In this document: piece by piece, positions 15,507 to 63,540 of the stretch
How the letters are laid out: every line of letters begins with the position of its first letter
Position numbering within the stretch: position 1 is the first letter of the stretch
NCBI GenBank assembly: GCA_934444365.1
Contig: CAKSCM010000009.1
Span: 1 to 64,000, forward strand
Length of the DNA: 64,000 nt
Source: an uncultured Eubacteriales bacterium
GTDB lineage: Bacteria > Bacillota > Clostridia > Oscillospirales > Acutalibacteraceae
Direction: 5' to 3'
Made by a program: the position numbers and the translations under genes
Notes under the pieces: generated by a model
Told to the model about the DNA's origin: nothing
Databases searched by the model: none
What the model saw: the letters and a program-made list of their open reading frames with translations, nothing else

Positions 15507-15529
15507 ACTCTTCTCCTTCGCCTACTGTA

Positions 15530-17803: not shown

Positions 17804-17882
17804 AGCAGATTATTCTGCTTTCATTGCTGCGTCCGGGGGTTTTCCTTCCTCCGGACGCAACACTTTACTGTTTTTCAAATCC

Positions 17883-18371
17883 TTAAAACCAATCGGCAAA
17901 AACCGAGAAGATTCCGTCGCCGGAATTATCTATAACAACACCGGTATCATCCTCGCCGCCGTTTACATATACGGTCTGGGACACCTCGCGCTTTTGCATG
18001 CCGAGCTCCTTGGCGGCAGCCTCTATGTTATCGTACGCAACGAGGTTTTCAAGCTCCATCGAAAGCCTCGTCTCTTCGCTTTTAAGCTCGGTAAGCTGAT
18101 TTTTCGCCTTATCTATCTGGGCGGTCAGCTCGGTTCCGACCAGATTGCTGTAAAGCTGAAATCCTATAAAGGCCAGCACCATCGCCGTAACACATAAAAT
18201 GCTTATGACTTTCCTCAGCGGCATGGCCGATTTTTCTAAAGAAGCGGCCGAATCTTCGCGCATTACGTTTTTCCTCGTTTTAAGCTCGACCACCTCGCCC
18301 CTTTTTTCCTTGGGTGCGAAGAGGTCAAAATCATATGCAAGGTTATTGTTATAATTCTGCATTTTCGGCAC
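17883..18371 (-). CDS. ftsL: Cell division protein FtsL (septum formation initiator).
   Basis: Small bitopic protein with a TM segment and coiled coil. Lies between rsmH and the PBP gene. Confidence 0.65.
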   Translation of the reverse strand: MPKMQNYNNNLAYDFDLFAPKEKRGEVVELKTRKNVMREDSAASLEKSAMPLRKVISILCVTAMVLAFIGFQLYSNLVGTELTAQIDKAKNQLTELKSEETRLSMELENLVAYDNIEAAAKELGMQKREVSQTVYVNGGEDDTGVVIDNSGDGIFSVFADWF

Positions 18372-18476
18372 TTCCTTTGTTTTTTATGTCAGATATCGGC
18401 AATCAGCCGGTAAAATAATGTTTCCGGCCGGTTGGCCGACCTTGTTTTTCGTTATAAAAACTCTGCTTTCGGTTTT

Positions 18477-19487
18477 CTATTCCTTTATCCGCCGCACGGC
18501 CCTTAGCTTTGCGCTCCTGCTTCTCGGGTTTAATCCAAGCTCTTCATCCGTCGCCGTAACCGGTTTTTTTGTAACCTTTTCGGCAAAGGGCGTTTTGTGG
18601 CAAACACAAACGGGAAATTCCGGCGGACAGGTACATCCTTTGCAAAGTTCAATAAAGCACTGCTTTACTATTCTGTCCTCAAGCGAATGGAAGGTGATAA
18701 CCGCGAGCACACCGCCGACATTTAAAAGTCCGGCCGCCGCTTTAAGCCCTTCTTTCAAAGCGTCGAGCTCTCCGTTTACGGCTATTCTTATCGCCTGAAA
18801 GGTCTGTCTTGCGGGATGGCCGCCCTTTCGCGCCGCTGCCGGATAAGCCTCGGCTGCAATCATAGCCAGCCGGCCGGTTGTATCAATAGGCGATTTCTGT
18901 CGCTCGGCAACAATGCGCGCCGCTATTCTTCTTGCAAATTTCTCCTCCGAATACTCATAAAGTATTCTTGCAAGCTCGTCCTCATCGGCTGTGTTTACAA
19001 TATCGGCCGCCGTAGGGCCCTGCTTTGACATCCGCATATCAAGCGGAGCGTCGGCGTGAAAGGAAAATCCCCGCTCGGCGCAATCAAGCTGAAAGGACGA
19101 AACGCCGATGTCGAGAAGTATTCCGTCGGCACCGGTGATTCCGGCCGCATTTGCAAGTTCGGTCATCTCGGAAAAATTCCCTCTTGCAAATGTTACGTTT
19201 TTATATTTTTCGAGCCGATTTTTCGAAAACTCCAAGGCGTCGGGATCCCTGTCAATACACAAAAGACGGCCGCTTGCCGAAAGTCTTTCGGCAATAAGAC
19301 TGCTGTGTCCGCCAAAACCGACCGTACCGTCTATATAAGTCCCGTTTTCACGGATATTAAGCGCCGCTATCGTCTCTCTTGCCAAAACCGGAATGTGCGG
19401 CGTTTTCGCCTGCCAATCGGTTTCGCAATCGCTGATCTTCGCACCGTTTATATTTGTAACAATGTCCGAATTGTCAGTTTCCTTCAT
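18477..19487 (-). CDS. rsmH: 16S rRNA (cytosine1402-N4)-methyltransferase RsmH/MraW.
   Basis: HIPVLARE...DGTVGFGGHS SAM-MTase motif. Follows mraZ. Confidence 0.9.
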   Translation of the reverse strand: MKETDNSDIVTNINGAKISDCETDWQAKTPHIPVLARETIAALNIRENGTYIDGTVGFGGHSSLIAERLSASGRLLCIDRDPDALEFSKNRLEKYKNVTFARGNFSEMTELANAAGITGADGILLDIGVSSFQLDCAERGFSFHADAPLDMRMSKQGPTAADIVNTADEDELARILYEYSEEKFARRIAARIVAERQKSPIDTTGRLAMIAAEAYPAAARKGGHPARQTFQAIRIAVNGELDALKEGLKAAAGLLNVGGVLAVITFHSLEDRIVKQCFIELCKGCTCPPEFPVCVCHKTPFAEKVTKKPVTATDEELGLNPRSRSAKLRAVRRIKE

Positions 19488-35669: not shown

Positions 35670-36168
35670 AACTTCCTCCGAAAATATATTTTTCTGAAAC
35701 ATGTCAAGTATCGCACCCGATAGGTAAAAAACGATTCTTACCCTTTGTCGGTGCAGCACAAGGCGTAATTTCCGAAATACCGCTTTATTCAAAAAGACCC
35801 ATACACAAATCCGGAATTTGCGTATGAGTCTTATTCTTTAAGGACGGACCGAGGAGATTTATCAGTTCTCCCGTGATGACGATCCCATCCCGCGTATTCC
35901 GCGGAACTACTCCCTCATATTTCATTATTTACATATTACCACCTTTATTTTCTTTTGTCAAGATTTTTGTGTTGCCCGACCGATCTATAAGCACTCTTAT
36001 TTTGTCGTTTCTAAAAACAATTTCCGTTATTAAAGCACTTTTCTTTGCGTTTTTTGCACAAAAAAGTATTGTAATTACTCCCCCGCTGTGATACAACATA
36101 CCCGTCGATAATCCTATAAGCCGTTCACTCACCACAGACGTGACGGCTTCGACATTAAGGAGGGACAA

Positions 36169-37575
36169 TTGATGAAAGAAATAACCTATCCCATTCGCTC
36201 GCGCACATTAAAGGATATAGCGACCCAGGAGACCCTTGACAATCTTATAGCCCAGATTGAAAACTGGCAGCAGGGCGTCGGCAACTACGGACTTTTAAAT
36301 CTTCATTCCTGCTGGGGAAAAACGTCGGTCCTTGATAAACGTTATCAGGGCCAGACCGTAAGCAATTATCAAGGTCTCGCCGCCGTTTTTAAAAGACTTT
36401 ACGAAACCACAAAGAACCCTAAATGGTGGCATAAAACCAACGACGTAATAAGGAACGTACTTTATCTTCAGCAGCCCGACGGAGGATTCCGCCATGCAAG
36501 CTCCGAATTCGAGCCGACCTTCGACTCGCACGCTACCTGCCCTATCCACCAGGGGAAAGCAGCACTGACCCTGCTCGAATACTACGACTGGGAATATGCC
36601 GACAGTAAAATCAAGGAGCTTATAAAACCGGCAATAGACCGCCACTGGGAATATTTCAACGATTATTTCTGGTGCCTCGGCAACGCCGGAAGACGTCCTC
36701 ACCCTTACAAGGCCGGCTGGTGCGGCGTCACGAATCAGGATCTTGTAGCGGTGGCAATGCTGGCATATTATTATAAATGCTTCGGGGATAAAAGCAGGTA
36801 TGACGAATTCGGAAAGCCGACCCTCGACCTCATTCTCTCGGATGAATACTACTACAAGGATATGGGACTTTTCGAACGCGGCGACGGCGAGAATTTCACC
36901 GAACGCACCCCGTATTATGTTATAATAATACATATGCTCGAAACGATTTACTCGATAATGCACGACGAGCGCATCCCCGATGTAATCGACAATGTCGTCT
37001 GTCATTTATTCGACGCCGCTTACACCGGAGAGGACGGGCTTATTCACCTTGCCTGGGGAGCCAAAACCGACGAAAAGGACAAAAGCCATGTTACCGGCTG
37101 GATACAGACCCCAACGGTATTTGATTCATACATAGATATAATTAAGCTTATGGACAAATATCTTAAGAAACACCCCGACGAAGAAAAACAGAGAATTCTC
37201 GACTCCCTTACCGAGACATTTTGCGCTTACTTCTATTGCGACGGCACTATTCCGGCTGCTCTTTGGGGGAAAAATCCGATATTCGAAATTTTCGTAAGAC
37301 CCGGCCGCGACGGACTGATAATGCTTATCATGGACCTCCTCGGCGACAATGTACAGGATCCGAAACCGGCAGAACCGCTTTGCATTCACCGTAAATACGG
37401 CGAATATACCTTCAAGCAAAAGGATAAATACTGGGCTATCGAGGAAAACGGCAAGCGTCTTTACGGAGGATACACCCCCTGCGCTTTCGGAATCACCCAC
37501 GGAGACGAGGCTCCTGTTTTCGGGAACTTTGACCTGCTCGACACCCCCGATATCGTAGAAATTATAAAAGACTGA
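36169..37575 (+). CDS. Hypothetical alpha-helical (alpha/alpha-toroid-like) enzyme, Trp/Tyr-rich. It shares a P[NK]WWH N-terminal motif with the lyase-like protein at 61735..63540.
   Basis: 468-aa ORF with a strong terminator downstream. Rich in aromatic residues, as in carbohydrate-active alpha-toroid enzymes. No confident family assignment. Confidence 0.5.
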   Translation: MMKEITYPIRSRTLKDIATQETLDNLIAQIENWQQGVGNYGLLNLHSCWGKTSVLDKRYQGQTVSNYQGLAAVFKRLYETTKNPKWWHKTNDVIRNVLYLQQPDGGFRHASSEFEPTFDSHATCPIHQGKAALTLLEYYDWEYADSKIKELIKPAIDRHWEYFNDYFWCLGNAGRRPHPYKAGWCGVTNQDLVAVAMLAYYYKCFGDKSRYDEFGKPTLDLILSDEYYYKDMGLFERGDGENFTERTPYYVIIIHMLETIYSIMHDERIPDVIDNVVCHLFDAAYTGEDGLIHLAWGAKTDEKDKSHVTGWIQTPTVFDSYIDIIKLMDKYLKKHPDEEKQRILDSLTETFCAYFYCDGTIPAALWGKNPIFEIFVRPGRDGLIMLIMDLLGDNVQDPKPAEPLCIHRKYGEYTFKQKDKYWAIEENGKRLYGGYTPCAFGITHGDEAPVFGNFDLLDTPDIVEIIKD

Positions 37576-37607
37576 TTTTTCAAAACAAAACAAAACAAAC
37601 GACAAAA

Positions 37608-37652
37608 GACCTCCGGGACCGACTTTAACGTCAATCACGGAGGTTTTTTAAT
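37608..37652 (+). terminator. Rho-independent terminator after the gene at 36169..37575.
   Basis: Stem acctccg...cggaggt followed by TTTTTT. Preceded by an (AAAAC)n microsatellite. Confidence 0.6.
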
Positions 37653-37765
37653 TCAGTTTTAATATTATATTTTTTAAAAACTATATTCCCGATACGATAA
37701 AAACCGATACGGCATTTAAATAATATTCTTCTTATATGATGTTATCTATTTATCAAATAAATATA

Positions 37766-38947
37766 CTAATCCTTCTCCGTGTAAAGCTTTACGTATTTTT
37801 GAACGATGTCTGACATTACGGGCAGCTTTTTCTCTACATCTTCAACCAGTTTAAGCTGGGTTCTGGCCCTGTCGAGATTGTGGTTTTCACGGTGGACCTT
37901 AAAGTATACGTCGCCGTTTAAATAATCGGCAAGAAAACGCGTTCCGCACTCGTATGTAAGTATAAGCACCGACATCGGCAAAAGCTCAATTTCCGTTTCG
38001 GTCAGGCAATGTGCCGTCTGCTGCAAAAAGCCCTTGGTAAACTGCTCAAACTTTTCAAGATCAAACCAGATCTTATCGAGATCGGTCTCATCCTCCGCTC
38101 CGCTTGAAGCACCGAAACGAAGCGCATCACCGAAATCGAACAGCGCCGATCCCGGCATAACGGTATCGAGGTCTATTACGCAGGATTTTTCATTGTCGTC
38201 CTTATCAAACAGAATGTTGTTGAGCTTGGTGTCGTTGTGGGTTACCCTAAGCGGAACCGAGCCGTCGGCCATTCTATCGGTAATGCAGGAGGCATACTTG
38301 CTGAATTTCAAAGCCGCCTCTATTTCTTTTTTTGCATATTCGGCCCGGTTTGCCGCATTGTTTTCTATTGCGCATTCGAGCTGTTTAACCCTTTCGGGGG
38401 TGTTATGAAAATCCTTTATGGTTTCATGAAGAGTTTCGGCCGAAAAATCGCTTAGCATTGCCTGGAATTTACCGAACGCACGGCCGGCATAGTAAAGCTG
38501 TATAGGATTTTCAACCAGATCGTAGCTTACGGAATTTTCTATAAAATGATACATTCTGAAAACGTTTCCGTCATCAGCCTTATAACAGTTCTTTTTGTCC
38601 TTGGTATAAATAACCGTAAGGGTTTCGTTTTTCGGGTCACCGCCGTTTTTTGTGATTTTTTCAGAGAGAAAACGGGTCACATTTACGATGTTTTCCATCA
38701 CATTCTCCGGCTCTTTAAAGACATTCGTGTTTATCCGCTGAAGAATAAACTTCGGGTCGGTCTCACACAAATATGTATCGTTTATGTGGCCGTTTCCGTA
38801 GGACTGAATGTCTGTTTCTATATCAAACTGCGAACAAATTCCCCTTAAATCGAAGCTGTCGGTTGCCACTGTAATGACCCCTTCCGTTTTCTTTCGTTTT
38901 TTCTTACTAATACATATTATATCGGAAAAATTGAAATTCTCCATCAT
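37766..38947 (-). CDS. Phosphotransferase-family kinase (APH/choline-kinase fold). Resembles N-acetylhexosamine 1-kinase (NahK)-type sugar kinases.
   Basis: Brenner motif HNDTKLNNILFD and an IDLD metal-binding motif. 393 aa. Confidence 0.6.
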   Translation of the reverse strand: MMENFNFSDIICISKKKRKKTEGVITVATDSFDLRGICSQFDIETDIQSYGNGHINDTYLCETDPKFILQRINTNVFKEPENVMENIVNVTRFLSEKITKNGGDPKNETLTVIYTKDKKNCYKADDGNVFRMYHFIENSVSYDLVENPIQLYYAGRAFGKFQAMLSDFSAETLHETIKDFHNTPERVKQLECAIENNAANRAEYAKKEIEAALKFSKYASCITDRMADGSVPLRVTHNDTKLNNILFDKDDNEKSCVIDLDTVMPGSALFDFGDALRFGASSGAEDETDLDKIWFDLEKFEQFTKGFLQQTAHCLTETEIELLPMSVLILTYECGTRFLADYLNGDVYFKVHRENHNLDRARTQLKLVEDVEKKLPVMSDIVQKYVKLYTEKD

Positions 38948-39184: not shown

Positions 39185-39271
39185 TGGTGCCGCTGACCGG
39201 ACTTGAACCGGTACGATATCGCTATCGAGGGATTTTAAGTCCCTTGTGTCTGCCTATTCCACCACAGCGGC
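39185..39271 (-). tRNA. tRNA-Leu (anticodon UAA).
   Basis: 87-nt cloverleaf. Anticodon stem AGGGA/TCCCT with loop CUUAAAA, a long variable arm, T-loop GGTTCAAGTCC, encoded CCA. Confidence 0.85.
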
Positions 39272-39323: not shown

Positions 39324-39352
39324 ATTATAACCCATAAGACATCCCGTGTCAA
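39324..39352 (-). promoter_or_regulatory. Consensus sigma-A promoter for tRNA-Leu.
   Basis: Read on the minus strand: TTGACA, 17-bp spacer, TATAAT. It lies ~45 nt upstream of the tRNA 5' end. Confidence 0.6.
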
Positions 39353-39498: not shown

Positions 39499-40683
39499 TT
39501 ACTCGGCCTTTTTGCGAACCCTTTTTATTATTATAAAGGCGGTCGCCGCAACAAGGGCCAAAGCGACTATCGCATAAACGAATGAGCTGATTTCGGTGCG
39601 CTTGACCTGACTCCAGCCGTCGTCCATTATTTTCTGGGTGTCGGCGTCAAGATATAAAAATTCCTCACCGCGCGAGAGAATTTCGGCCGACGGATAAACC
39701 ACCTCATCGTTGTAATAAGAGTACTCGGGATCCTGCTCAACCGAGGTTATCGGGCTTGAATAGCCTATCGTCTCGGCGTTTGCAAGGGCAATCTCATGCG
39801 AGCACATAAAATTGATATACTCCTCGGCCGCCGCCTTGTTTTTGGCCCCTTTGGGAATGCACATGGCATCCACAAAAACGTTGAAGCCTTCCTTCGGGAA
39901 AACAAATTCGAGGTCGGGATTATTGGCCTGCATGGTTTTAAAATCTCCGGCATAATACGGGGCGATCGCCGCCTCGCCGCTTTCCATTTTATTAAAGACC
40001 TCATCGGCAACATAGGCCTGTACAAGGGGCTTTTGCTCCTTTAACTTCTCGGTGGCAGCATCCCACTGAGCCTTATCGGTGGTGTTGTAGCTGTAACCGA
40101 GCAGAGAAAGCGCCACGGCATATGCGTCGCGCGGGTTGTTGAACATAAGTATTTTACCGGCATACTGTTCGTCCCACATATCGGCCCATCCCTCAAGAGG
40201 CGCCGAAACCATTGTTTTATTGTAAATAATGCCGGCGGTTCCCCATGTATAAGGCACCGAATATTCGCTGTTCGGATCGTACGAAAGCGAGGTTTTTATC
40301 ACCTTTTCGTCTACGCTCTTATAATTCGGAATGTTTGAAAAATCGAGCTTTTCAAGCATATCCTCCTTTATAAGACGGGAAATCATGTAATCCGACGGGG
40401 TTATAACGTCGTAATTGGCTCCGCCTGCTTTAAGCTTTGCATACATGGTCTCATTGGTGTCGTAATTTGAGTAATTTACGGTCATTTTAACGCCGTATTT
40501 CTGCTCGTAATACTTTTCAAATTCGGCGTTGACGTCGAGCGAATCCTCAGATCCGTCCGAGATATACTCGCCCCAGTTGAACACGTTGAGTGTAACCGGG
40601 TCGTTGTTGTCGGCACTTACCGCAACGCAAAGCGACGACAAAACCACAACAAGTACAGATAAAAATGACAAAAACCTTTTCAA
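39499..40683 (-). CDS. potD: Spermidine/putrescine-type ABC transporter substrate-binding protein (PotD-like). It has an N-terminal signal peptide and an unusual C-terminal TM anchor.
   Basis: SBP_bac_8-like (PotD/PotF) sequence features. The C-terminal helix is FVYAIVALALVAATAFIII followed by basic residues. Confidence 0.65.
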   Translation of the reverse strand: MKRFLSFLSVLVVVLSSLCVAVSADNNDPVTLNVFNWGEYISDGSEDSLDVNAEFEKYYEQKYGVKMTVNYSNYDTNETMYAKLKAGGANYDVITPSDYMISRLIKEDMLEKLDFSNIPNYKSVDEKVIKTSLSYDPNSEYSVPYTWGTAGIIYNKTMVSAPLEGWADMWDEQYAGKILMFNNPRDAYAVALSLLGYSYNTTDKAQWDAATEKLKEQKPLVQAYVADEVFNKMESGEAAIAPYYAGDFKTMQANNPDLEFVFPKEGFNVFVDAMCIPKGAKNKAAAEEYINFMCSHEIALANAETIGYSSPITSVEQDPEYSYYNDEVVYPSAEILSRGEEFLYLDADTQKIMDDGWSQVKRTEISSFVYAIVALALVAATAFIIIKRVRKKAE

Positions 40684-40717
40684 TTCCTTCGTTTCTCCTT
40701 AAATAAAGATTTTTTTA

Positions 40718-41575
40718 TCACATTGAAAACCTTTTAAGGTTTTCAAGTCCTACCCTTATGCTCTCGTCCACCGGCTCCATCCCCTCGAATTCGAGAGAAA
40801 TATATCCGTCGTATCCGGCGGCCTTTAAAATGTTTATACACTGCTTTACCGGAACGCAGCCGTGGCCCAAAACCGTACCGCGAAGGTAGTTTTGTCCCCG
40901 GGTTTTAAAAAAGCAAGCCCCGGGGTCCTCGCCCGATCCAGACTTATAAAGAAAATCCTTGGCATGGATATAAAAGGCATGAGGAGCAAGCCTTGATACC
41001 GCCTTTGACGGCTCCTCATCGACGCAAAGGAAATTGCCGATATCCACAAGCAGGCCGAAATTCTCATATCCGACGGCGTTAAAAAGCGCCTCTACGCGGT
41101 CGGAATCCTGGCATATAAACCCGTGGTTCTCGGTCATTGTGCGAACACCGCTGCCCTGTGCGTATTCGGCCACTCCGCGCACGCAATCGGCGACGGATTT
41201 AAGGCCTTGATCAAAGGAAGCGAAAAATCCCCCTGCCCCGAAAACGTCATGCCGCATGAGCTTCGAGCCCATCAAGGCGGCCGCATCGACGTAACGCTTT
41301 AACCGTTCAACCTCGTTGTGCCTGCCCTTTTCATCCTTGTTAAAATCGGCAGCTATTGCAAGGTTTGTAACCTCAAGGCCGAAGCTCCTTGCCCTTTTGC
41401 CGAATTCCTCCGCAAAACCAAGAATTTCCTTATCATCAATATATCCCGAAGGACTCAGTTCAATGCCGTCAAACCCGATATCCGCCGCTTTTTTCACACA
41501 ATCGGCAAGGGTCATCTCCCCATTTGCAATGCTCCTTGCAAAGCTGTAGGTCGTAACGGAATACTTCATCTGCAA
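40718..41575 (-). CDS. Xylose-isomerase-like TIM-barrel protein (sugar phosphate isomerase/epimerase family).
   Basis: 285 aa. AP-endonuclease-2/XI-like TIM-barrel features with metal-ligand His/Glu/Asp positions. Embedded between potC and potD. Confidence 0.7.
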   Translation of the reverse strand: MQMKYSVTTYSFARSIANGEMTLADCVKKAADIGFDGIELSPSGYIDDKEILGFAEEFGKRARSFGLEVTNLAIAADFNKDEKGRHNEVERLKRYVDAAALMGSKLMRHDVFGAGGFFASFDQGLKSVADCVRGVAEYAQGSGVRTMTENHGFICQDSDRVEALFNAVGYENFGLLVDIGNFLCVDEEPSKAVSRLAPHAFYIHAKDFLYKSGSGEDPGACFFKTRGQNYLRGTVLGHGCVPVKQCINILKAAGYDGYISLEFEGMEPVDESIRVGLENLKRFSM

Positions 41576-41619
41576 GTCCTCCTACCGCTGCACTGATACA
41601 GCCGGTTTGTTATCGGCCG

Positions 41620-42435
41620 TTATTTCCCGGATGCGGAATTTGTCTTTAGCTTTTTCTCGTTGCGATTCTGCCGGACATTTATCAGTATAAGCAGCACGAG
41701 CACCACGACAAAAAGTATTGTCGAAAGGGCGTTTATGTCCGGACGAACACGTTTTTTGGTCATGGAATAAATCCTAAGCGGAAGGGTCTGAAAGCCCGGA
41801 CCGCTGACAAAATAGCTTATTACAAAATCATCGATCGAAAGGGTAAACGACATTATAAATCCGGTGATTATTCCCGGTACGACCGACGGCAAAACCGCCT
41901 TAAAAAAGGCCTTTATAGGGGTGCAGCCGAGGTCCTGAGCCGCCTCGGACAAATACCTGTCGGAGGCCTTAAGCATCGGCAGCACCGAAAAAATAACGTA
42001 GGGTAAATTAAAGGTTATATGAGCTATAAGCACGGTTACAAATCCGAGGGTCGAGGTGTTTTTAAACAGCACACCCACAAAAACAAACAGCAGCATAAGC
42101 GAAACGCCGGTTACTATGTCGGGGTTCATAAGCGGTATATTGGTAACCGCACTGACCGCTTTTTTCTGCCAGCGGTGCATATAGGATATTCCGACCGCCG
42201 CCGCCGTGCCGAGCACCGTTGCGATAACGGCCGACAAAACGGCCACTATAAGGGTGTTGTACAGCGAGCCGATGGTCTGCCTGTCGCGAAAAAGCTCGGC
42301 ATACCATTTAAACGAAAATCCCGTAAAAACTCCGGTGGAATCGCCTTTGTTAAATGAAAAGAAAATCATGACAAGGATAGGAGCATACATCAGGAAAAAA
42401 ATTATGAAAAGATATATCTTAGAGGCTTTTTTCAT
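41620..42435 (-). CDS. potC: ABC transporter permease (PotC-like).
   Basis: Six-TM BPD-transport permease. Its start overlaps the potB stop by 4 bp. Confidence 0.75.
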   Translation of the reverse strand: MKKASKIYLFIIFFLMYAPILVMIFFSFNKGDSTGVFTGFSFKWYAELFRDRQTIGSLYNTLIVAVLSAVIATVLGTAAAVGISYMHRWQKKAVSAVTNIPLMNPDIVTGVSLMLLFVFVGVLFKNTSTLGFVTVLIAHITFNLPYVIFSVLPMLKASDRYLSEAAQDLGCTPIKAFFKAVLPSVVPGIITGFIMSFTLSIDDFVISYFVSGPGFQTLPLRIYSMTKKRVRPDINALSTILFVVVLVLLILINVRQNRNEKKLKTNSASGK

Positions 42436-43256
42436 ACGACCATCGTCTCCCCTTCCCCGTCGGTATACTGGTTCATTATGGCTATGCATATAAAGATCAT
42501 GACCATAAGCACCAGCGACAGCGCCGCGCCGACATTGTAGTTATACTCCCAGTTGAACTTTGTGTCGATAACATCGCCTATAAGCATGAGGTTTCCGCCG
42601 AGCTTCTGGGAAATATAAAAGGTACTTACCGACGGAACAAACACCATGGTAACGCCCGAGGCGATTCCCGGAACACTAAGCGGCAGCACCACTCTTTTAA
42701 AAACCGACATGGCCGAGCCGCCCAGATCCTGAGCCGCCTCGATAAGGTTTTTGTCGATCTTGGTCATGACGGTATAAAGCGGCAGTATCATATACGGAAT
42801 AAAGTTGTAAACCATACCTATAACGACGGCCGCACGGGTGTTTATAACGTGTATAGGACCTATACCGATATACGAAAGCAGGCTGTTTATTATACCGGTA
42901 TCCTCCAGAATGGTCATAAGCGCATAGGTCCTCAGTATAAGATTCATCCACATCGGCAGCATGACAAGCACTATCATTATACGCTGCTTCGATTGCGGCA
43001 TTCGCGATATCATATAGGCTATCGGATATGCGATAACAAGGCTTATAACGGTAGCTACCGCACCCAGCCACACCGACAGCAAAAGGGTGTCGCCGTAATC
43101 CGCAATGGCCGAAATGTTGTTAAGCGTGAAGGCCCCATCGCTGTCGGTAAAGGCATAATAAGCCACCACGCCTAAAGGCACGACTATAAATATTACCGAC
43201 CACAAAAGGTAGGGCGCCGCGCATAGGCGCTGAGCCAAAGTGCGTTTAGCCTTCAA
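42432..43256 (-). CDS. potB: ABC transporter permease (PotB-like).
   Basis: Six-TM BPD-transport permease. Its start overlaps the potA stop. Confidence 0.75.
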
Positions 43257-44431
43257 TTCTTGTCATCCCCTTCGCTTTCTTCGCCCTCTTCGAAAATCTC
43301 GCTCGCTTCCTCCTCGGGAACGTAATCCGGATCGGAAAGATGATCCATTTCCTCGCTGAAGGTGCTGTAATCGCCGAACATTCCGGAATACTCCGATTTT
43401 TTCATAACATGTATATCCTCGGGATTAAGCACAATGCCTATATCATCCCCGACGTTTATACAGTCGGTGGTCTGTATCATCCATTTAAAGCCCTTTATAT
43501 CCACTATTACCTCATAATGGACACCCTTGAAGGTCGATCCGGTAACAATACCCGACAGATGTCCCTTTTCCGGAACGGTAACGTCTATATCCTCGGGACG
43601 TATTACTATGTCGACCGGCTCGTCCTTATCAAAGCCCTTATCGACGCAATCGAAGACCTTGCCGGCAAATTCGCACTTATAATCCTCGCGCATAATGCCG
43701 TCTAAAATATTGCTGTCCCCTATAAAATCGGCGACAAAGGCATTCTCCGGCTCGTTGTAAATATCCTGAGGGGTTCCTATCTGCTGAATTAACCCCTTAT
43801 CCATAACCACAACGCGATCGGACATGGAAAGCGCCTCTTCCTGATCGTGGGTTACGAAAATAAAGGTTATTTTAAGCCGCTGCTGTATTTTTTTAAGCTC
43901 AACCTGCATATCCTTGCGAAGCTTTAAATCAAGGGCTGCAAGCGGCTCGTCAAGAAGCAGTACCTTGGGACTTGTAACCAAAGCGCGGGCTATTGCAACA
44001 CGCTGCTGCTGACCTCCCGAAAGGGTGGCGATCCGCCGCTTTTCAAAGCCCTTTAAGCCGACAAGCTCTATCATCTCGCCGACCTTGCTTTTTATCTCCT
44101 TTTCGGGGAGCTTGCGCACCCTCAGTCCGAAGGCGACGTTCTCGAAAACGTTAAGATGCTCAAACAGCGCATAACGCTGAAATATCGTACATACCTCGCG
44201 CTTATACGGAGGAAGATCGTTGATATTCCGTCCGTCAAAAAAAACATCGCCGCTGTTCTGACTTACAAAACCCGCAATTATCCGAAGGGTAGTGGTTTTG
44301 CCGCAGCCGGAGGGGCCGAGCAATGTAACAAATTCCCCGTCTTTTATTGAAAGACTGATATCGCGAAGAATGGGTTCCGAGTCGAATTCGACGACAATAT
44401 TTTTAAGCTCTATTAAATTTTTGTCGGACAT
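43253..44431 (-). CDS. potA: ABC transporter ATP-binding protein (PotA-like) with an acidic C-terminal tail.
   Basis: Walker [18 protein letters not shown], Walker B LLLDEP. It has a C-terminal TOBE-like domain followed by an [18 protein letters not shown] tail. Confidence 0.8.
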
Positions 44432-53405: not shown

Positions 53406-54149
53406 TTATTCAACCAACTGCTTTATGCAATCGATATCCTTTATAAAATTATCGTCCTCGTCGTCCTTTACAAACTCGAGAATAAAATTGCACTCATCAT
53501 GCGCTGCCTTTACTCGGCTTATGAATTTCTGCCATTTTTCGGTTCCCTCGCTCATGAGAAAACGCTGTCCCCTATCGTCCCAGTTAAAAACGTGCACCGT
53601 TACGATATAGTCGAGGACCTTCGATAAATTCTTGTCGTCGGTCCCGTCGGAAAAAGGCTGCCAGTAGGTCTTAACATTCGGTTTATTAACCTTGTTTATA
53701 AGACGGACGGTGTTCTCTCCGCAATCGTTAAAGGTAACGTGGTGGAACTCAAAGCCGATAGTTACAGAATACTTTTGCGCAATATCGGCCATTCGCGAGA
53801 CCTCATCGCACAGCGCGAGAAATTCTTCCTCGCTTGTTTCGGCAGAGGCTTTAAGCCCGAGCCAGACGCGAACGATTCTCGCTCCCAGTATATCGGCCGT
53901 TTTGCAAACCCTTTCAAAGGCGGCCATGTCGTTAAAGCCTACCCTGTAGTAGCTGCCATAGGAAACGCTCTTTATGCCGGCCGCATCGCAAAGTGCGCGT
54001 ACGCGCTTCGCGTTTTCCTCGTTATCGGGCGGAACATGAACGTCTCCTCCCCATTCAATGCAGTTTATTCCGGCTTTTTTTGCAATATCAATTATTTCCT
54101 CAACGCTTTTTTTTCTGAAGGTAACGGTCGTAAAGCCTATGTTGTACAT
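53406..54149 (-). CDS. Xylose-isomerase-like TIM-barrel protein (sugar phosphate isomerase/epimerase).
   Basis: 247 aa with XI/AP-endonuclease-2-like TIM-barrel features. Confidence 0.7.
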   Translation of the reverse strand: MYNIGFTTVTFRKKSVEEIIDIAKKAGINCIEWGGDVHVPPDNEENAKRVRALCDAAGIKSVSYGSYYRVGFNDMAAFERVCKTADILGARIVRVWLGLKASAETSEEEFLALCDEVSRMADIAQKYSVTIGFEFHHVTFNDCGENTVRLINKVNKPNVKTYWQPFSDGTDDKNLSKVLDYIVTVHVFNWDDRGQRFLMSEGTEKWQKFISRVKAAHDECNFILEFVKDDEDDNFIKDIDCIKQLVE

Positions 54150-54185
54150 ATTTTTCTCCTCCTTGATTGAGCCTTTGCGGTTTTG

Positions 54186-55181
54186 TCAGGCCATGGTTTT
54201 AAGCATGTCTAAAGTAACCGAATATTTAGGCTCTCCCCCAGATGTTATGCGCAAAAACTCATCGATCATCCAGTCGGCCAGACGGTTGCGCTCGTTACCG
54301 ATGCTGCCGGCTATATGTGGCGTGATTATAACGTTCGGGCATTCGCAAAGCGGGCTGTCTTTTTTAACGGGCTCGGGCCATGTAACGTCAAGAAGGGCTG
54401 TCAGCGACGGGTTTTTCTTCATAGCCTCAGCTAAATCCGCCTCGTTCACCTGAGCGCCCCGACCAGTGTTTATAAAGGTCGAGCAGGGCTTCATTCTTGA
54501 AAAAAGCGACAGATTATATATGCCGTTTAGTTCCTGCTTGTTGGCGAGATGGTTGGTTATGACGTCGCAGCTTTCGAATATTTCCTCAAGGCTTACAAGG
54601 GTGATGCCAAGTTCATCGGCGCGCTCCTTCGGTAAGAATTTATCAAAGGCATACACCTCACACTCGGTGCTCTTAAGCCGCTCGCACACCATTGAGCCTA
54701 TGGCGCCGACTCCGCATACGCCGACTTTGGCCTTGTATGATCCCTTTAAATCGTAATCGAAGCCGGCGGGAAATACGTTGTGCTTCGGGTAGTTCTGGGT
54801 GCTGAAAAAGCCTTTTAGCGCCAGCATTATCTGAGCAAAGGTATATTCGGCTACCGGTATTCCGTTTGCAACCCATGCGCTCGACACGAAAATTCCGTTT
54901 TCCAAAAACTCCTTTGCAAAGCCCTGAACACTGCCGGCGGCATAAAGCACCGCTTTAAGGTTCGGGAAGCATTTTTTTATTTCCTCGTCCGAAAAACGCG
55001 GCATACCCCAGGTTGAAAACAGATACTCGGTATCGGCCGATATCGACGGATCGTGCATGAGCTCGCTCTTTGTGTAAACGCCGTCGCAAAGCTCGCTGTT
55101 CGCCTGCAGCCTGCCTACCTGAGCCTTTGCGTAAACGGCTTTTGCCGCGTCCTTATTATCGGAAAAAATCATGGTTTTCAT
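54186..55181 (-). CDS. D-isomer-specific 2-hydroxyacid dehydrogenase family (NAD-dependent).
   Basis: Rossmann segment GVCGVGAIGSMV and the catalytic TPHIAGS region. Confidence 0.8.
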   Translation of the reverse strand: MKTMIFSDNKDAAKAVYAKAQVGRLQANSELCDGVYTKSELMHDPSISADTEYLFSTWGMPRFSDEEIKKCFPNLKAVLYAAGSVQGFAKEFLENGIFVSSAWVANGIPVAEYTFAQIMLALKGFFSTQNYPKHNVFPAGFDYDLKGSYKAKVGVCGVGAIGSMVCERLKSTECEVYAFDKFLPKERADELGITLVSLEEIFESCDVITNHLANKQELNGIYNLSLFSRMKPCSTFINTGRGAQVNEADLAEAMKKNPSLTALLDVTWPEPVKKDSPLCECPNVIITPHIAGSIGNERNRLADWMIDEFLRITSGGEPKYSVTLDMLKTMA

Positions 55182-55386
55182 TTTTTATTCCTCTTTTCCC
55201 AAAATAAAAAGCTCAAAGTATTGTACCGGCAAAACCGCTGTTCTCCTGAAAAAATATTGTTTTTAGTCAGACGTGCCGAAAAAACAGATATGCTGCCGCA
55301 TTTCAAAGTTTTTTAGGGGCGTATGACGGAAAAAGAACGATTCTTGAGAGGTTTATCCCTACGCGGTACAACACAAGACTTAAAAC

Positions 55387-57351
55387 TCAATAAACGTTTC
55401 GGTTTTCGCGGTAGCCGCGCCAGACATTCTCAAAAAAGCCTCCGCCGTCGGGAAGGGCTCTTACATCCCGCCATCCGACAAATGCCTTAAGGTTTCCCTC
55501 TAAAGCCACCTGTTCCACCATTTTGTCAAGCGCGCCGTCGTCGGGGATGAATCTGAATATATCCTCAAGTCCGTCCGGCTTTACGCCGTTTTCGTTTGTG
55601 TAAAGGGCCGAGCCGCGCGACTTTCCGCCCTTTTCGGAATATCCGGCAAAGGCCGTAAGATAAACATACTGAGCCGCCAGCGTGTCACGCAAACGATAAA
55701 GCATTCTGAGTGCTTCGGGCGAGCTTACTCCGGCGTTATCAAGTAAAACGAGCTCCTCTTTTACCTTAACGGCATATTCGCCGATGGCTTTGGGCGAACG
55801 TATGGCCCCGGCACATTCGCTCATTGATTTGCGTGCCTTTTTAAGCTTCATTACGGCGCTGTCGCCGCCGTTTTCAAGCACCCTTTCGCAAAGCGCAATA
55901 TGAAATCTTAACTTTTTATCGGCGGCGGCGAAAAATTCATCGTCGCGCGACGGCTCATTGGGCCTTGCGGCGATGTATGAGGCCGCTCTTAATGATCCGA
56001 CCTGACCGGCGTTAAGAGCGCTTCCGCCCGGACGGTATACACCGTGTGTTCCGGCACATTCTCCGGCCGCAAAAAGCCCCTTTATATCGGTCTGCCACCA
56101 CATATCAACCGCTATTCCGCCGTTATTATGCTGTGCGCAAAGCGAAATTTCAAGCGGCTGCCTCGTTATATCGACTCCCTTCGATCTGTAAAGCTCGACC
56201 GCCGGCATATTCATATGCGAAAGTCGCTCAATCGGAGTGCCGAAATCGGCTCCGGCATTTTTGAGATAATCCCTTGCCTCATCGCTTAAATCGCCAAAAG
56301 GAATCTCTTTGAGTCCGAACGGATTACGGGTGAAATCAAGAAATACCCTCCTGCCACGCATGAACACCTCGCGGTAAACAAGCAGATCTATAACCGACGA
56401 GCCGTTTTGCGCCTTTCGGCTGTCAAAGGGCCATTCATAGCCCTTTTTAAACACCATGGAAAGGGCCTTGGCGTCATCGGAATAGTATTCGCTTAAAAAC
56501 TCATATTCATTGCCCTGCTCGTCACGGGAGAAAAATCTCGGCAGTACCTGCATATAGGTTCCCGAAACATTCCAGCGCGGGGCGATTGATGCGAGTCCGT
56601 ACTGCCATTCGGTAAGATTCTGTCCCTTTGCTCCGGCCAAAAACGCCACTCCCGAGGCACCGGCATGTCCCACCGGATAAACGGTATCGCTGTAAATTCC
56701 GGCCGGTCCTCCGGTTGCATAGATTATATCATGCGCTTTAAAAAGGGTAAAGCGCGTGTTTTTATCGTCTGCCCCGTCCAAATTGAGACAAAGCACACCG
56801 AGCGCTTTGTTATTATCGGTTATAATCTCGATTACCTGCTGCTTGTCAAAAACGGTGACATCGCGGCGCAAGGCCTCCTTTTGCAGACATTCGGTCATCA
56901 TTTTAGAGGTAAGCGGACCCACCGACGTGGCTCTGGCCCGTGTATCGTGGTCGGTTTTATAGCCGACGTATTCGCCGAAGTTATTCACCGGGAAATCCAC
57001 CCCGAGCTCGCAAAGCGACAAAAAGCAGCGCACCGAATTGGCCGCTTCTGCAAGAGCATTGTCGCCGTCAACGCATTTGCCGGCAAAAAGCTCCGATGCC
57101 ATTGAGTGGGGAGAATCGTCGTCCGCCGCGCAAAGGTTCATTTTGTAGTAGGTCTGCTTGTCCGAACCGGTATTGCGCGAGGTTCCCATGTCGACCCCCT
57201 CGGTGATTATTGCAATATCGTCCACCCCGAGCTTTTTAAGCTGAACGGCCGCATTGTAGCCGGCGGCTCCCGTTCCGATTATTGCCGCGTCAAGGGTAAC
57301 GGTTTTTATGTTTATTCCGTCAAAGCTGTGTATTTCGGTCTTCATGTACAT
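55387..57351 (-). CDS. FAD-dependent oxidoreductase of the fumarate-reductase/succinate-dehydrogenase flavoprotein family, with a ~200-aa C-terminal extension.
   Basis: N-terminal dinucleotide fold IIGTGAAG. SdhA-like RPGGSALNAG motif. 654 aa. Confidence 0.7.
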   Translation of the reverse strand: MYMKTEIHSFDGINIKTVTLDAAIIGTGAAGYNAAVQLKKLGVDDIAIITEGVDMGTSRNTGSDKQTYYKMNLCAADDDSPHSMASELFAGKCVDGDNALAEAANSVRCFLSLCELGVDFPVNNFGEYVGYKTDHDTRARATSVGPLTSKMMTECLQKEALRRDVTVFDKQQVIEIITDNNKALGVLCLNLDGADDKNTRFTLFKAHDIIYATGGPAGIYSDTVYPVGHAGASGVAFLAGAKGQNLTEWQYGLASIAPRWNVSGTYMQVLPRFFSRDEQGNEYEFLSEYYSDDAKALSMVFKKGYEWPFDSRKAQNGSSVIDLLVYREVFMRGRRVFLDFTRNPFGLKEIPFGDLSDEARDYLKNAGADFGTPIERLSHMNMPAVELYRSKGVDITRQPLEISLCAQHNNGGIAVDMWWQTDIKGLFAAGECAGTHGVYRPGGSALNAGQVGSLRAASYIAARPNEPSRDDEFFAAADKKLRFHIALCERVLENGGDSAVMKLKKARKSMSECAGAIRSPKAIGEYAVKVKEELVLLDNAGVSSPEALRMLYRLRDTLAAQYVYLTAFAGYSEKGGKSRGSALYTNENGVKPDGLEDIFRFIPDDGALDKMVEQVALEGNLKAFVGWRDVRALPDGGGFFENVWRGYRENRNVY

Positions 57352-57359
57352 TCCCCTTT

Positions 57360-58127
57360 TTACAGCCGCTGAATATGGAAACCGCCGTCAACGTCTATCG
57401 ACTGGCCGGTAGTATATCCGAAACGATCCGAACAGAGGGCTCCTATAACCTTGGCAACGTCCTCGGGATATCCCCAGCGTTTTATCGGAAGGAGTCCGCC
57501 GTCAATAAGATCGTCATACTTTTTCTTTACGGTCGAGGTCATGCCGGTTGCGATTATGCCCGGTCTTATCTCGTTTACGATTATTCCCTCGCTTGCAAGA
57601 CGGTCGGCAAAAAGGGTGGTTATCATGGAAACGCCGGCTTTTGAGATGCAGTATTCTCCGCGGCTTACCGAGCTTGTATATGCCGACATGGACGATATGT
57701 TAACAATATATCCGTGAATATCTTCGGTTCGGGGTCTTTCAAGCATTTTCTTTGCGACCGCCTGGGTTAAAAACATGGTCGCCTTGGTGTTTACGCCCAT
57801 TACCCTGTCGTAGCTTTCCTCGGTCATTTCGAGGATATCGGCGCGCACCTTTGGCGCTATGCCGGCGACGTTTACAAGAGCGTCAATACGGCCGAATTTT
57901 TCCAAAGTACGGTCGATAAAGCGCTGTCTGTCGTCGGATTTTGAAAGATCGCCGACGGTATAAAGCACCCGGTCCTTCATTTCGCCTAAACGGTCGTTTG
58001 CCGTATTTTCGTCAAGCATATCAAAGGCCGATACGTCGTATCCGTCCGATATAAGCTGCTTTACGGCAGCAAATCCGATACCGCCCATAGCCCCCGTTAT
58101 CATTGCGCATTTTTTCATTTTTATCAT
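57360..58127 (-). CDS. Short-chain dehydrogenase/reductase (SDR).
   Basis: TGAMGGIG cofactor motif and the catalytic YxxxK (YCISK). Confidence 0.85.
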   Translation of the reverse strand: MIKMKKCAMITGAMGGIGFAAVKQLISDGYDVSAFDMLDENTANDRLGEMKDRVLYTVGDLSKSDDRQRFIDRTLEKFGRIDALVNVAGIAPKVRADILEMTEESYDRVMGVNTKATMFLTQAVAKKMLERPRTEDIHGYIVNISSMSAYTSSVSRGEYCISKAGVSMITTLFADRLASEGIIVNEIRPGIIATGMTSTVKKKYDDLIDGGLLPIKRWGYPEDVAKVIGALCSDRFGYTTGQSIDVDGGFHIQRL

Positions 58128-61556: not shown

Positions 61557-61734
61557 GGGTTAACTGCTTCCTGTTTTCCCGCAAAAGCAGTAATAAGTGC
61601 ACGATATGCAGTATATCGTGCACTTTTTTTGTGTTGTTTTCAAAAGGGCTTTGTGGTATTTTTAAATGGTATGAGTGTTGCGCCCGATAAATAAGAAGCA
61701 ATCATCCGGCGCAATACCAAGGAGGGTAAAATTA

Positions 61735-63540
61735 ATGACCGATCTCGAAAAAATAAAACTAAAATATACCGACTGTCTGTTTATATCCCAAAAGGGCACT
61801 TGCGACATTTTGCCGATAAAGGCGGAGGGCTCGCTTAAATTCGCCGATGTCGACTACGAGGACAAGACCCTTTCGGAATGGAAAACGCCCGAGCATTTGC
61901 GCCGCGCCTGCAAAATTGCGGCCTCAGGCGGAAAAGAAAAGCTTAAAAACGATAAGGAATTCCGGGATACAGTACTTTCCCTTTTTAATTTCTGGCTTAA
62001 AAACGATTTTACAAATCCCAACTGGTGGCATAATCAGATAGGAGTTCCCCGTCTTGTATCATATCTCTGCCTGTTTTTAAGGGATTATCTGAGTGACGAG
62101 CAAAAGGAAATGTGCGAAAAAATACTGCTTCGCGGCTCGCTCGGAGGAAACGCTGCAATAAACTCCTGGACCGGGGCCAACCTTATGTGGGGAATATTCG
62201 GGACGGTAAACCATGCGCTTATAAGTGATAACAGCGAGCTTTTAAAAACGGCCGTTGACCGCGCCATGCGCGAGGTTGATATAATGGATGGATTAAAAGA
62301 GGGAATAAAGCCCGATATGTCCTTTTATCAGCACGGACCGATGATATACACCTACGGATACGGACGGGATTTTACGCACGACTGCGCTCTGCTTTTTTAC
62401 ATTCTCTCCGGAACCGAATTCATGCCGTCACAGGAAAAGACCGGCCTGTTCGAGGATTTTATTCTCGACGGCAGCAGATGGTTCGCCTGCCATAGCTTCG
62501 CCGATTACATGACCGTAGGACGTGAGATATCAAGAAAAAATGCCCTGTCGCTTGAAAAAATCGCATTTGCCTTAAAGCTGATGACCGAAACCGCCGAATA
62601 TAAAAGGAAGGACGAGATTTCCTCCTTTTACCGGTCGCTTACCGATAAATCCGCCCCTCAGATAACCGGACTTCGCGAGTTTAAAAACTCATATATGATA
62701 GTTTCGAGAACGAATAACACCTACATGTCGGCCAAAGGGGCGCACAAGGACTATCTTTGCTGTGAAGCCGGCAACTACGAAAACTATCTTTCGGCAAACT
62801 ATTTTTCGGGACAAACCGTTTGCTTTATGTCAAAGGGCGACGAATACTTCAATTTATCGCCGGTATACGATTACTCGGTCATTCCCGGAGTAACCGCATT
62901 TTTGCAAAACGACGAAAAGCTGCTTGAGCGCATGGGTAATTACGCCCACTGGATCAACGAAAAAGGGAAAACCGACTGTTTCGGATTAAAATGCAAAAAC
63001 GGTATCGGCGTAATGGCAATGGAAATTGTAAACGACGGCATAACCGGTTATTGCTCGAGAATTACCAAAAACGGGAACATGCTTTTGCTCACAAGCTCAA
63101 TAAACGCCGGAAACGACTGCTGCCAGAATGTAGTAACGGCGGTCGATCAGTGCCGTCTGCGGGAAAACTGCACCGTAAAAACCGGCGAAAAACAGCTGAT
63201 TTTAAAGGGATCAAGCGTTACAAACGGAGCCTTTACCTATACAAATCTTTCGGATACGCCCCTTTTCGCCGAGGCAATAAATGCAAAGGGCAACTGGAAG
63301 CGCAACAATCTTGACATGACGACCGATCCGGTCGAAACCGGCGTTTTCAAGCTGTATTTCGAACACAAAAAGGCCCCGTCGAACGCCTCGTGTGCGGTTC
63401 TGGTAAGCGAAAACGGCAGTGAGATGCCGTTTGATGTATCGGATGTAACCCTCCTTCAAAACTGTCACTCGGTAAAAATTTCTCCCGATGTAAAAATCGA
63501 CATCGCTTTCGAAGGCGAGCAGTGTGAGATCAATTTTTAA
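61735..63540 (+). CDS. Polysaccharide-lyase-like protein (heparinase II/III or PL8-like). It has an N-terminal alpha-toroid with an NWWH motif and a C-terminal beta-sandwich region.
   Basis: Start set at the ATG with AAGGAGGG RBS. N-terminal helical region with PNWWHNQ. C-terminal beta-rich ~250 aa. Family assignment is tentative. Confidence 0.45.
   Translation: MTDLEKIKLKYTDCLFISQKGTCDILPIKAEGSLKFADVDYEDKTLSEWKTPEHLRRACKIAASGGKEKLKNDKEFRDTVLSLFNFWLKNDFTNPNWWHNQIGVPRLVSYLCLFLRDYLSDEQKEMCEKILLRGSLGGNAAINSWTGANLMWGIFGTVNHALISDNSELLKTAVDRAMREVDIMDGLKEGIKPDMSFYQHGPMIYTYGYGRDFTHDCALLFYILSGTEFMPSQEKTGLFEDFILDGSRWFACHSFADYMTVGREISRKNALSLEKIAFALKLMTETAEYKRKDEISSFYRSLTDKSAPQITGLREFKNSYMIVSRTNNTYMSAKGAHKDYLCCEAGNYENYLSANYFSGQTVCFMSKGDEYFNLSPVYDYSVIPGVTAFLQNDEKLLERMGNYAHWINEKGKTDCFGLKCKNGIGVMAMEIVNDGITGYCSRITKNGNMLLLTSSINAGNDCCQNVVTAVDQCRLRENCTVKTGEKQLILKGSSVTNGAFTYTNLSDTPLFAEAINAKGNWKRNNLDMTTDPVETGVFKLYFEHKKAPSNASCAVLVSENGSEMPFDVSDVTLLQNCHSVKISPDVKIDIAFEGEQCEINF

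Follow-up and report, generated by a model that had tools for sequence, protein, structure and literature searches.

In bifidobacteria, the N-acetylhexosamine (HexNAc) 1-kinase NahK belongs to the galacto-N-biose/lacto-N-biose (GNB/LNB) gene cluster, where it is accompanied by a glycoside hydrolase (GH) family 112 phosphorylase, GalT, GalE and an ATP-binding cassette (ABC) transporter (PMC8106489). A NahK-like kinase is also encoded in the window analysed here, which comprises positions 1 to 64,000 of contig CAKSCM010000009.1 (assembly GCA_934444365.1) from an uncultured Eubacteriales bacterium of the family Acutalibacteraceae. We compared this kinase (K), the protein encoded convergently beside it (A) and a lyase-like protein encoded elsewhere in the window (L) with the closest described families. 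An initial annotation had joined the three into one system. A and L, both with a P[N/K]WWH motif, were taken as paralogous α/α-toroid enzymes, and A was thought to cleave a hexosamine-containing glycan from which K would salvage the sugar as its 1-phosphate.

We consider a different reading likely, in which A is a stand-alone glycan-processing enzyme with a six-hairpin barrel, K is an independent HexNAc 1-kinase and L is a polysaccharide lyase of family PL8 that is unrelated to A. Three unrelated genes would then have been read as one system. K and L are of known kinds, and the novelty lies in A, at the level of the family and within a well-known fold.

Family and fold of protein A

No match to A was obtained in Pfam, NCBIfam or the PDB sequences with either single-sequence or profile searches, and a literature search found no publication describing its family. 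The homologues of A form 89 clusters among 5.8 billion proteins, and every named one is called 'hypothetical'. At an E-value of 1e-3 or lower, 74 matches were found among 1.84 billion representative proteins, and the family occupies 38 loci in 185,579 species genomes. Its hosts are Clostridia (from gut, rumen and termites), Verrucomicrobiota and Planctomycetota, and more distant relatives with 28-34% identity occur in Thermoprotei and Bathyarchaeia, including some thermophilic archaea.

Tandem copies of the gene were observed in termite-gut, verrucomicrobial and planctomycete contigs. There are duplicates in loci L014 (7453-10258), L030, L031 (9992-12965) and L055 and three copies in L066 (1-3437). 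One of the tandem copies (P0028) is without Cys48 and Trp49.

The AlphaFold2 model of A, built with the family alignment, has a predicted local distance difference test score (pLDDT) of 95.9 and a predicted template modelling score (pTM) of 0.94. It consists of 12 helices arranged in six hairpins (residues ~20-394), which is the (α/α)6 barrel that characterizes the six-hairpin superfamily, followed by a small β-sheet (~406-466). The nearest folds, at ~10% identity, are the N-acylglucosamine 2-epimerases (AGE) and cellobiose 2-epimerases, GH88, GH105, GH76 and GH8. Foldseek gave template modelling (TM) scores of 0.45-0.56 for its matches, in agreement with six-hairpin folds. No PL8 structure was present in either of the two lists of top structural neighbours.

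The most remote relatives of A weakly match the Pfam models GH88 (7e-9 for protein P0146), GH76, C5-epim_C, GH127 and Prenyltrans, whereas A itself matches none of the models of the GH88/GH105 and GH76/GH8 six-hairpin glycosidases. When profiles were compared with hhalign, P0146 aligned with the A profile over its full length (98.4% probability), while true GH88 reached a probability of 1.2%. As P0146 is homologous to A and true GH88 is not detectably related, we regard A as a separate family on the margin of the six-hairpin clan.

Thirteen residues are invariant in the family when the distant relatives are included (W33, G38, H46, W49, Y59, G61, E113, N189, Q190, E245, Y249, G290 and G359), and D191 is nearly so. 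According to the alignment and the topology of the model, every conserved position, E113 and E245 included, is found either in one of the six long loops or at the N-terminus of the helix after such a loop. The long-loop face would be the active-site face, as is usual in such barrels. In the 41-sequence core of the family, H46 and C124 never vary, and at least 90% of the members keep C48 and H127. C48, C124 and H127 are lost in distant full-length homologues, while E113, E245, N189 and Q190 persist. Past residue 127 the family has no invariant histidine, and its C-terminal half keeps only G290, G297, D358, G359 and P362.

The side of the barrel that carries the two invariant glutamates also presents aromatic residues and amides, which suggests a glycosidase-like pocket. 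The catalytic carboxylates would be those of E113 and E245, and H46, Y59, N189, Q190, D191, Y249, W33 and W49 may line the sugar pocket. The clostridial members carry no signal peptide, and A is a cytoplasmic barrel protein of a rare, uncharacterised family. If A is a glycan-processing enzyme, it would most likely be a glycoside hydrolase with an imported oligosaccharide as its substrate; we hold glycoside hydrolase chemistry as such only tentatively, at slightly less than an even chance.

Comparison of protein A with the PL8 lyase

The motif on which the paralogy of A and L had been proposed is present in both proteins, as NPKWWHKTNDV in A (residues 83-93) and as NPNWWHNQIGV in L (residues 114-124). 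When A and L were compared using BLASTP, a single segment of 18 residues was aligned (10 identities, 24.6 bits, E-value of 0.008 for this one comparison), and nothing outside this segment was aligned. When all 53 window proteins were compared with one another, this pair ranked 7 of 1378. Four plainly unrelated pairs, for example a penicillin-binding protein and a flavoprotein, reach 24.6-25.4 bits or more. The similarity that had been described as a conserved N-terminal segment is thus within the range expected by chance for this window.

The profile of the 41 A-family sequences gave a probability of 0.25% against L using hhalign, and the motif region was not part of the alignment. Within the motif of A, W86 alone is near-invariant in these sequences; W87 and H88 vary, and relatives show KWKC, KWRI or RWRR at this position. 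In the modelled barrel the motif sits at the N-terminal end of the helix formed by residues 84-99; this is the side with the short turns, remote from the long loops and their conserved residues. The NWWHN of L coincides in the alignment with the identical NWWHN of the Flavobacterium chondroitinase AC (1cb8) and is, on this basis, a true PL8 family motif. The likeness between PKWWH and PNWWH is a chance match. The paralogy of A and L is rejected because the motif is all that aligns, an outcome that the initial annotation had itself named as a refutation.

Its remaining statements about the two proteins held in part. An aromatic-rich composition was found for A (13.7% W+Y+F, rank 4 of the 53 window proteins), whereas L is average in this respect (10.5%). 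Both contain a helical domain of the α/α-toroid type, as judged from the AlphaFold2 model of A and the Lyase_8_N match of L, but homology between the two domains was not supported. A was correctly described as being without the β-sandwich (super-sandwich) domain of PL8. What A has in common with PL8 lyases is the general α/α-toroid architecture and the five-residue resemblance only. It has no Pfam match to Lyase_8_N or Lyase_8 even at an E-value of 1 or lower, no detectable homology and no super-sandwich, and a complete six-hairpin barrel takes the place of the PL8-type toroid.

L itself matches the Pfam models Lyase_8_N (1.2e-22) and Lyase_8 (1.5e-22) and, over residues 29-558, the chondroitinase AC structures 1cb8/1hm2 (6.7e-33). 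Weaker matches in the PDB were a mannuronate-specific lyase, xanthan lyases and hyaluronate lyases. The catalytic blocks of 1cb8 with His (QHGP), Tyr (Y-G), Arg (GR..SR) and Glu (E.GN.EN) are all kept. Judged from these matches, L is an ordinary PL8 lyase that resembles chondroitinase AC and has an intact catalytic tetrad. It shares with 1cb8 both domains, the NWWHN motif and the catalytic positions, and differs from what is usual for a polysaccharide lyase in that no obvious signal peptide was seen when its N-terminus was read. The NCBIfam chondroitinase-AC model was matched with an E-value of 1e-43 and a score of 149.7. As this is far under the equivalog cut-off of 1000, we assign no substrate to L.

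Identification of the kinase as a NahK orthologue

The initial annotation of K as a NahK-like kinase with an HNDTKLNN motif was borne out. K aligns at full length (residues 34-379) with NahK (LnpB; PDB 4ocj and 4wh1) of Bifidobacterium longum, with 49% identity and an E-value of 1.7e-93. The HNDTKLNN catalytic loop, the IDLDT Mg site and long blocks of the C-lobe are identical in the two proteins. The Pfam APH model is matched at 4e-17. K is, on these grounds, an N-acetylhexosamine 1-kinase orthologue, and from the level of identity and the identical catalytic motifs it would phosphorylate N-acetylglucosamine (GlcNAc) or N-acetylgalactosamine (GalNAc) at C1. Proteins of this type are currently named 'aminoglycoside phosphotransferase family protein' in public databases, and the identification is therefore useful for annotation.

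Unlike its B. longum counterpart, K is not located in a GNB/LNB cluster; no GH112 phosphorylase, GalT or GalE is encoded within the 64-kb window. Location in that cluster is context and not a strict requirement for membership of the family. The nearest non-identical orthologues of K, with 81% and 74% identity (loci L050 and L051), are accompanied instead by GH123 β-N-acetylgalactosaminidase, GH109, a NagA-like amidohydrolase, NagB-ROK and aldose 1-epimerase genes in their operons. Of these, both GH123 and GH109 release GalNAc. A role of K in HexNAc salvage is supported by this association of its orthologues with GH123, GH109, NagA and NagB-ROK, and the data suggest a clostridial route for salvage of GalNAc or GlcNAc as the 1-phosphate outside the bifidobacterial GNB/LNB cluster.

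In these two operons the GH123 gene is followed by a conserved open reading frame (ORF) of 282 amino acids without a Pfam match (L050:3585-4433 and L051:5163-6011), which extends over the beginning of the kinase gene and may encode an uncharacterised partner of this clostridial NahK clade. No such ORF precedes K.

Is protein A paired with NahK?

The convergent arrangement of A and K was confirmed, with 190 bp between their stop codons. This interval contains a hairpin with a folding energy of -21 kcal/mol (z-score -4.67), and none of 200 shuffled sequences folded equally well (0/200). The hairpin is probably a bidirectional intrinsic terminator. A and K adjoin in every conspecific contig that spans the junction. 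Within 10 kb of an A gene, a NahK homologue was found only in the conspecific contigs L048, L049 and L053, in which the A proteins are 98-100% identical. None was found within 10 kb of the A homologues of other taxa, in ~75 distinct loci from the genome and metagenome sets, and no A homologue was found near the three nearest orthologues of K. The NahK family, with at least 7985 clusters against the 89 of the A family, is at least 90-fold more abundant.

The proposal that A and the kinase form a glycan-cleavage and sugar-1-phosphate salvage pair is not sustained by these results, as the genes are convergent, the hairpin lies between them and the adjacency is seen in this species only. Being peculiar to this species, the adjacency gives no indication of a shared pathway.

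Localisation and gene neighbourhood of the A family

Outside the Clostridia, signal peptides were found in family members from diderm phyla. Planctomycete-like members (P0008, P0011-P0014, P0017 and P0021) have twin-arginine translocation (Tat)-type signals (TRRDFL), and Kiritimatiellota-like members (P0077-P0082 and P0091) have Sec signals. One of the latter, P0082 (778 amino acids), has an endonuclease/exonuclease/phosphatase (EEP, PF03372) domain joined C-terminally to its barrel. The genes immediately beside A homologues in Verrucomicrobiota and Planctomycetota include those for MGH1/GH63-like proteins (4 loci), GH78 (3 loci) and GH92 (2 loci), as well as GH65, GH27-like, GH101, β-helix and LacI proteins. 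Sugar regulators of the GntR/LacI type were found within 7 kb of A homologues in 8 loci, and GH78, CBM9 and GFO_IDH_MocA genes were also found near A homologues. A glycan-processing role of A is likely because its relatives in Verrucomicrobiota and Planctomycetota have export signals and are encoded among glycosidase genes and sugar regulators.

Several observations weigh against our reading of the three genes. The neighbours of the clostridial A genes, also in this window, are heterogeneous housekeeping genes (in Clostridia, SecA, IMPDH, topoisomerase IV and SpoIIE), and the carbohydrate context of A is drawn from other phyla. The clustering of the conserved residues of A in one pocket is deduced from secondary-structure topology and not from measured distances. 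A and K could still share a pathway in this organism despite the missing adjacency in other taxa. In addition, two loci connect A homologues with genes from the PL8 side of the window. In L005 (Oscillospiraceae) a trio of FAD_binding_2, 2-Hacid_dh and AP_endonuc_2 genes (15036-18999) lies 3.6 kb downstream of an A homologue, and its members match their orthologues at 53406-57351 of the window with E-values of 3e-186, 7e-97 and 3e-54, respectively. In L029 (Lachnospiraceae) a close orthologue (3e-115) of the TIM-barrel gene at 60702-61556 is convergent with an A homologue (L029:11503-12342). These two loci are sparse and weak hints that tie the A family to the PL8-side genes.

A search for conserved partners of A gave a D-2-hydroxyacid-dehydrogenase-family gene (2-Hacid_dh) in 5 loci and the trio and the TIM-barrel gene in 1 locus each, which is too sparse to build on.

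Alternative functions of protein A

The paired system of the initial annotation now appears scarcely credible. It can draw on the motif in both proteins, on their toroid-type helical folds, on a kinase that truly is NahK and on the adjacency of A and K in all junction-spanning conspecific contigs. These points are outweighed by the chance-level alignment and hhalign result, by a motif that the A family does not keep, by structural neighbours that include no PL8 fold and by convergent genes with a terminator between them; NahK was near 0 of the ~75 A loci of other taxa, and its orthologues have GH123 and GH109 as partners. An AGE-type sugar isomerase or epimerase (N-acylglucosamine 2-epimerase, cellobiose 2-epimerase or YihS-like), which would interconvert an aldose with its ketose or C2-epimer on a free sugar or on the reducing end of an oligosaccharide, is also unlikely. 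The similarity of A to the fold of this superfamily, which includes mannose isomerase and the sulfoquinovose isomerase YihS, is real (8-13% identity), and the D-2-hydroxyacid-dehydrogenase-family gene found near A homologues in 5 loci is directly downstream in one of them (L009). In AGE enzymes, histidines of the fourth and the sixth hairpin carry out catalysis, whereas the A family has no invariant histidine in this part of the protein. A has no Pfam match to GlcNAc_2-epim even at an E-value of 1 or lower. It also differs from the AGE superfamily in the extra ~60-residue C-terminal β-sheet and in the export of some family members; Tat or Sec export of many members would suit a glycan hydrolase better than an isomerase of monosaccharides, although this is not decisive.

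If A were a functional analogue of GH88/GH105, it would cut the Δ4,5-unsaturated products of PL8 and free GlcNAc or GalNAc for NahK. We give this little credence. The window does contain an intact PL8 gene yet no GH88 or GH105 gene, the most distant relatives of A match Pfam GH88 weakly, and L005 and L029 link A homologues to orthologues of the PL8-region genes. Moreover, the acidic residues E113 and D191 are in the second and third hairpin loops, which we take to be equivalent to the loops holding Asp88 and Asp149 of the unsaturated glucuronyl hydrolase (UGL) of Bacillus. Against it stand the low probability for true GH88 in the profile comparison and the missing Pfam matches of A to GH88 and GH105. 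No PL8 homologue was found within 10 kb of any A homologue, and L009 already has a GH88 gene 5 kb from its A homologue. A is monocistronic in the window and 24 kb from the PL8 gene, and its adjacency to NahK is not conserved. Still less probable is a non-carbohydrate α/α-barrel enzyme with a metal or thiol centre formed by H46-x-C48 and C124-x-x-H127, for which LanC, the β-subunits of prenyltransferases, class II terpene cyclases and linalool dehydratase could serve as models. The conservation of these four residues in the family core agrees with such a centre, as do the Tat-type signals, often present on cofactor-bearing proteins, in part of the family, and one weak relative matches Pfam Prenyltrans and LANC_like. 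It is contradicted by the loss of both cysteines and H127 in distant homologues that retain E113, E245, N189 and Q190, by the lack of a DxDD motif and by neighbours in Verrucomicrobiota and Planctomycetota that are glycosidases and sugar regulators. Finally, it is rather improbable that A founds a new (α/α)6-barrel family at the CAZy level with a chemistry unlike the characterised ones. In one version the same His/Cys centre would be used, which would fit the Tat-type signals of the planctomycete-like members. In the other, a novel unsaturated-uronyl or rhamnose-related glycosidase would, in this organism, feed HexNAc to NahK and cooperate with the PL8, which has no obvious signal peptide, and with the redox genes, 16-24 kb away (described below).

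Had the paired system been true, it would have meant a new lyase-like family coupled to the salvage of sugars at the anomeric position; this does not hold. What stays, under our reading of A as a stand-alone glycan-processing enzyme, is a confidently folded six-hairpin barrel with very few homologues and without a curated family or a solved relative. New glycosidase specificities usually come from orphan barrels in glycan-degrading bacteria, and the A family is for this reason a reasonable target for biochemical screens.

Gene starts and layout

The ORFs that had been listed for A, the kinase and the lyase-like protein all exist, and the longest form of L has 621 amino acids instead of 600 (Table 1).

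Table 1 Positions of the genes and signals discussed in the text (window coordinates)
Feature	Position	Strand	Remarks
Protein A	36169..37575	+	Longest ORF from TTG 36169 (468 amino acids); probable start ATG 36172 (467 amino acids)
Ribosome-binding site of A, AAGGAGG	36158..36164	+	7 nt 5' of ATG 36172; read from the sequence
Hairpin between the stop sides of A and K	37604..37649	.	Flanked by an A-run and a U-run; RNA folding
Kinase K (NahK orthologue)	37766..38947	-	Longest ORF 393 amino acids; probable start GTG 38869 (367 amino acids)
Promoter-like site of K, TGGAGA-16-TATAAT	38916..38943	-	10/12 matches, 47 nt 5' of GTG 38869; consensus match only
tRNA-Leu(TAA)	39185..39271	-	ARAGORN; Rfam tRNA 57.7 bits
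Sigma-70-type promoter of tRNA-Leu(TAA)	39352..39324	-	12/12 match, TTGACA-17-TATAAT; promoter scan
Protein L (PL8 lyase)	61675..63540	+	621 amino acids; the 600-amino-acid form of the initial annotation begins at ATG 61735

The ATG behind the AAGGAGG sequence is probably the start of A, and the resulting length of 467 amino acids is the one given in the gene calls of conspecific contigs. K probably starts at its internal GTG, because homologues have 357-361 amino acids and one orthologue aligns from exactly this codon.

A is monocistronic in the window, with a divergent Band_7 gene on one side and the convergent K on the other. With a guanine-plus-cytosine (GC) content of 0.47-0.50, similar to that of the adjoining genes, its composition gave no sign of a recent insertion. 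The synteny of locus L052 had raised the idea that A was inserted between K and the Band_7 gene. This was dropped, since the Band_7 proteins are 22% identical and not orthologous. Four independent assemblies (L001-L004), in which the protein is identical to A, break ~50 bp past the stop codon of A, at the AT-rich hairpin region, and are thus uninformative about the kinase. The A-K junction is evidently hard to assemble, or strain-variable.

On the other side of K, the gene for the transfer RNA (tRNA) of leucine, with its perfect promoter, intervenes between K and an upstream ABC-transporter operon, and K is therefore not the last gene of that operon. K is probably transcribed from a promoter of its own, toward A, as the promoter-like site in Table 1 would suggest. 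A riboswitch or leader upstream of K was also considered; the 550-bp gap contains the tRNA-Leu gene instead.

The transporter operon is PotABCD-like (39499-44431, minus strand) and encodes an ATPase, two permeases and an SBP_bac_8 binding protein. A gene for a xylose-isomerase-like TIM barrel (40718-41575) sits between the permease and binding-protein genes. The insertion is uncommon among polyamine-type transporters and hints that the substrate is sugar-like or modified.

Other genes in the window

The PL8 gene lies beside a redox-rich cluster on the minus strand. The cluster consists of AP_endonuc_2 (53406-54149), 2-Hacid_dh (54186-55181), a FAD_binding_2 flavoprotein of 654 amino acids (55387-57351), a short-chain dehydrogenase/reductase (SDR; 57360-58127), an Old Yellow Enzyme (OYE)-like flavin oxidoreductase (58195-59511) and AraC (59501-60355). 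Two genes diverge from it, a second AP_endonuc_2 gene encoding a TIM barrel (60702-61556) and then the PL8 gene. With flavoproteins of the ene-reductase type encoded beside a lyase whose products are α,β-unsaturated uronates, the catabolism of unsaturated uronates may follow an unusual route here.

Near the start of the window, a protein of 463 amino acids (302-1693, minus strand) contains collagen triple-helix repeats (Pfam Collagen, 2.7e-23). Its gene, in a region of clostridial chromosome, adjoins DnaB_2/IstB-like replication genes and the division and cell wall (dcw) cell-division cluster.

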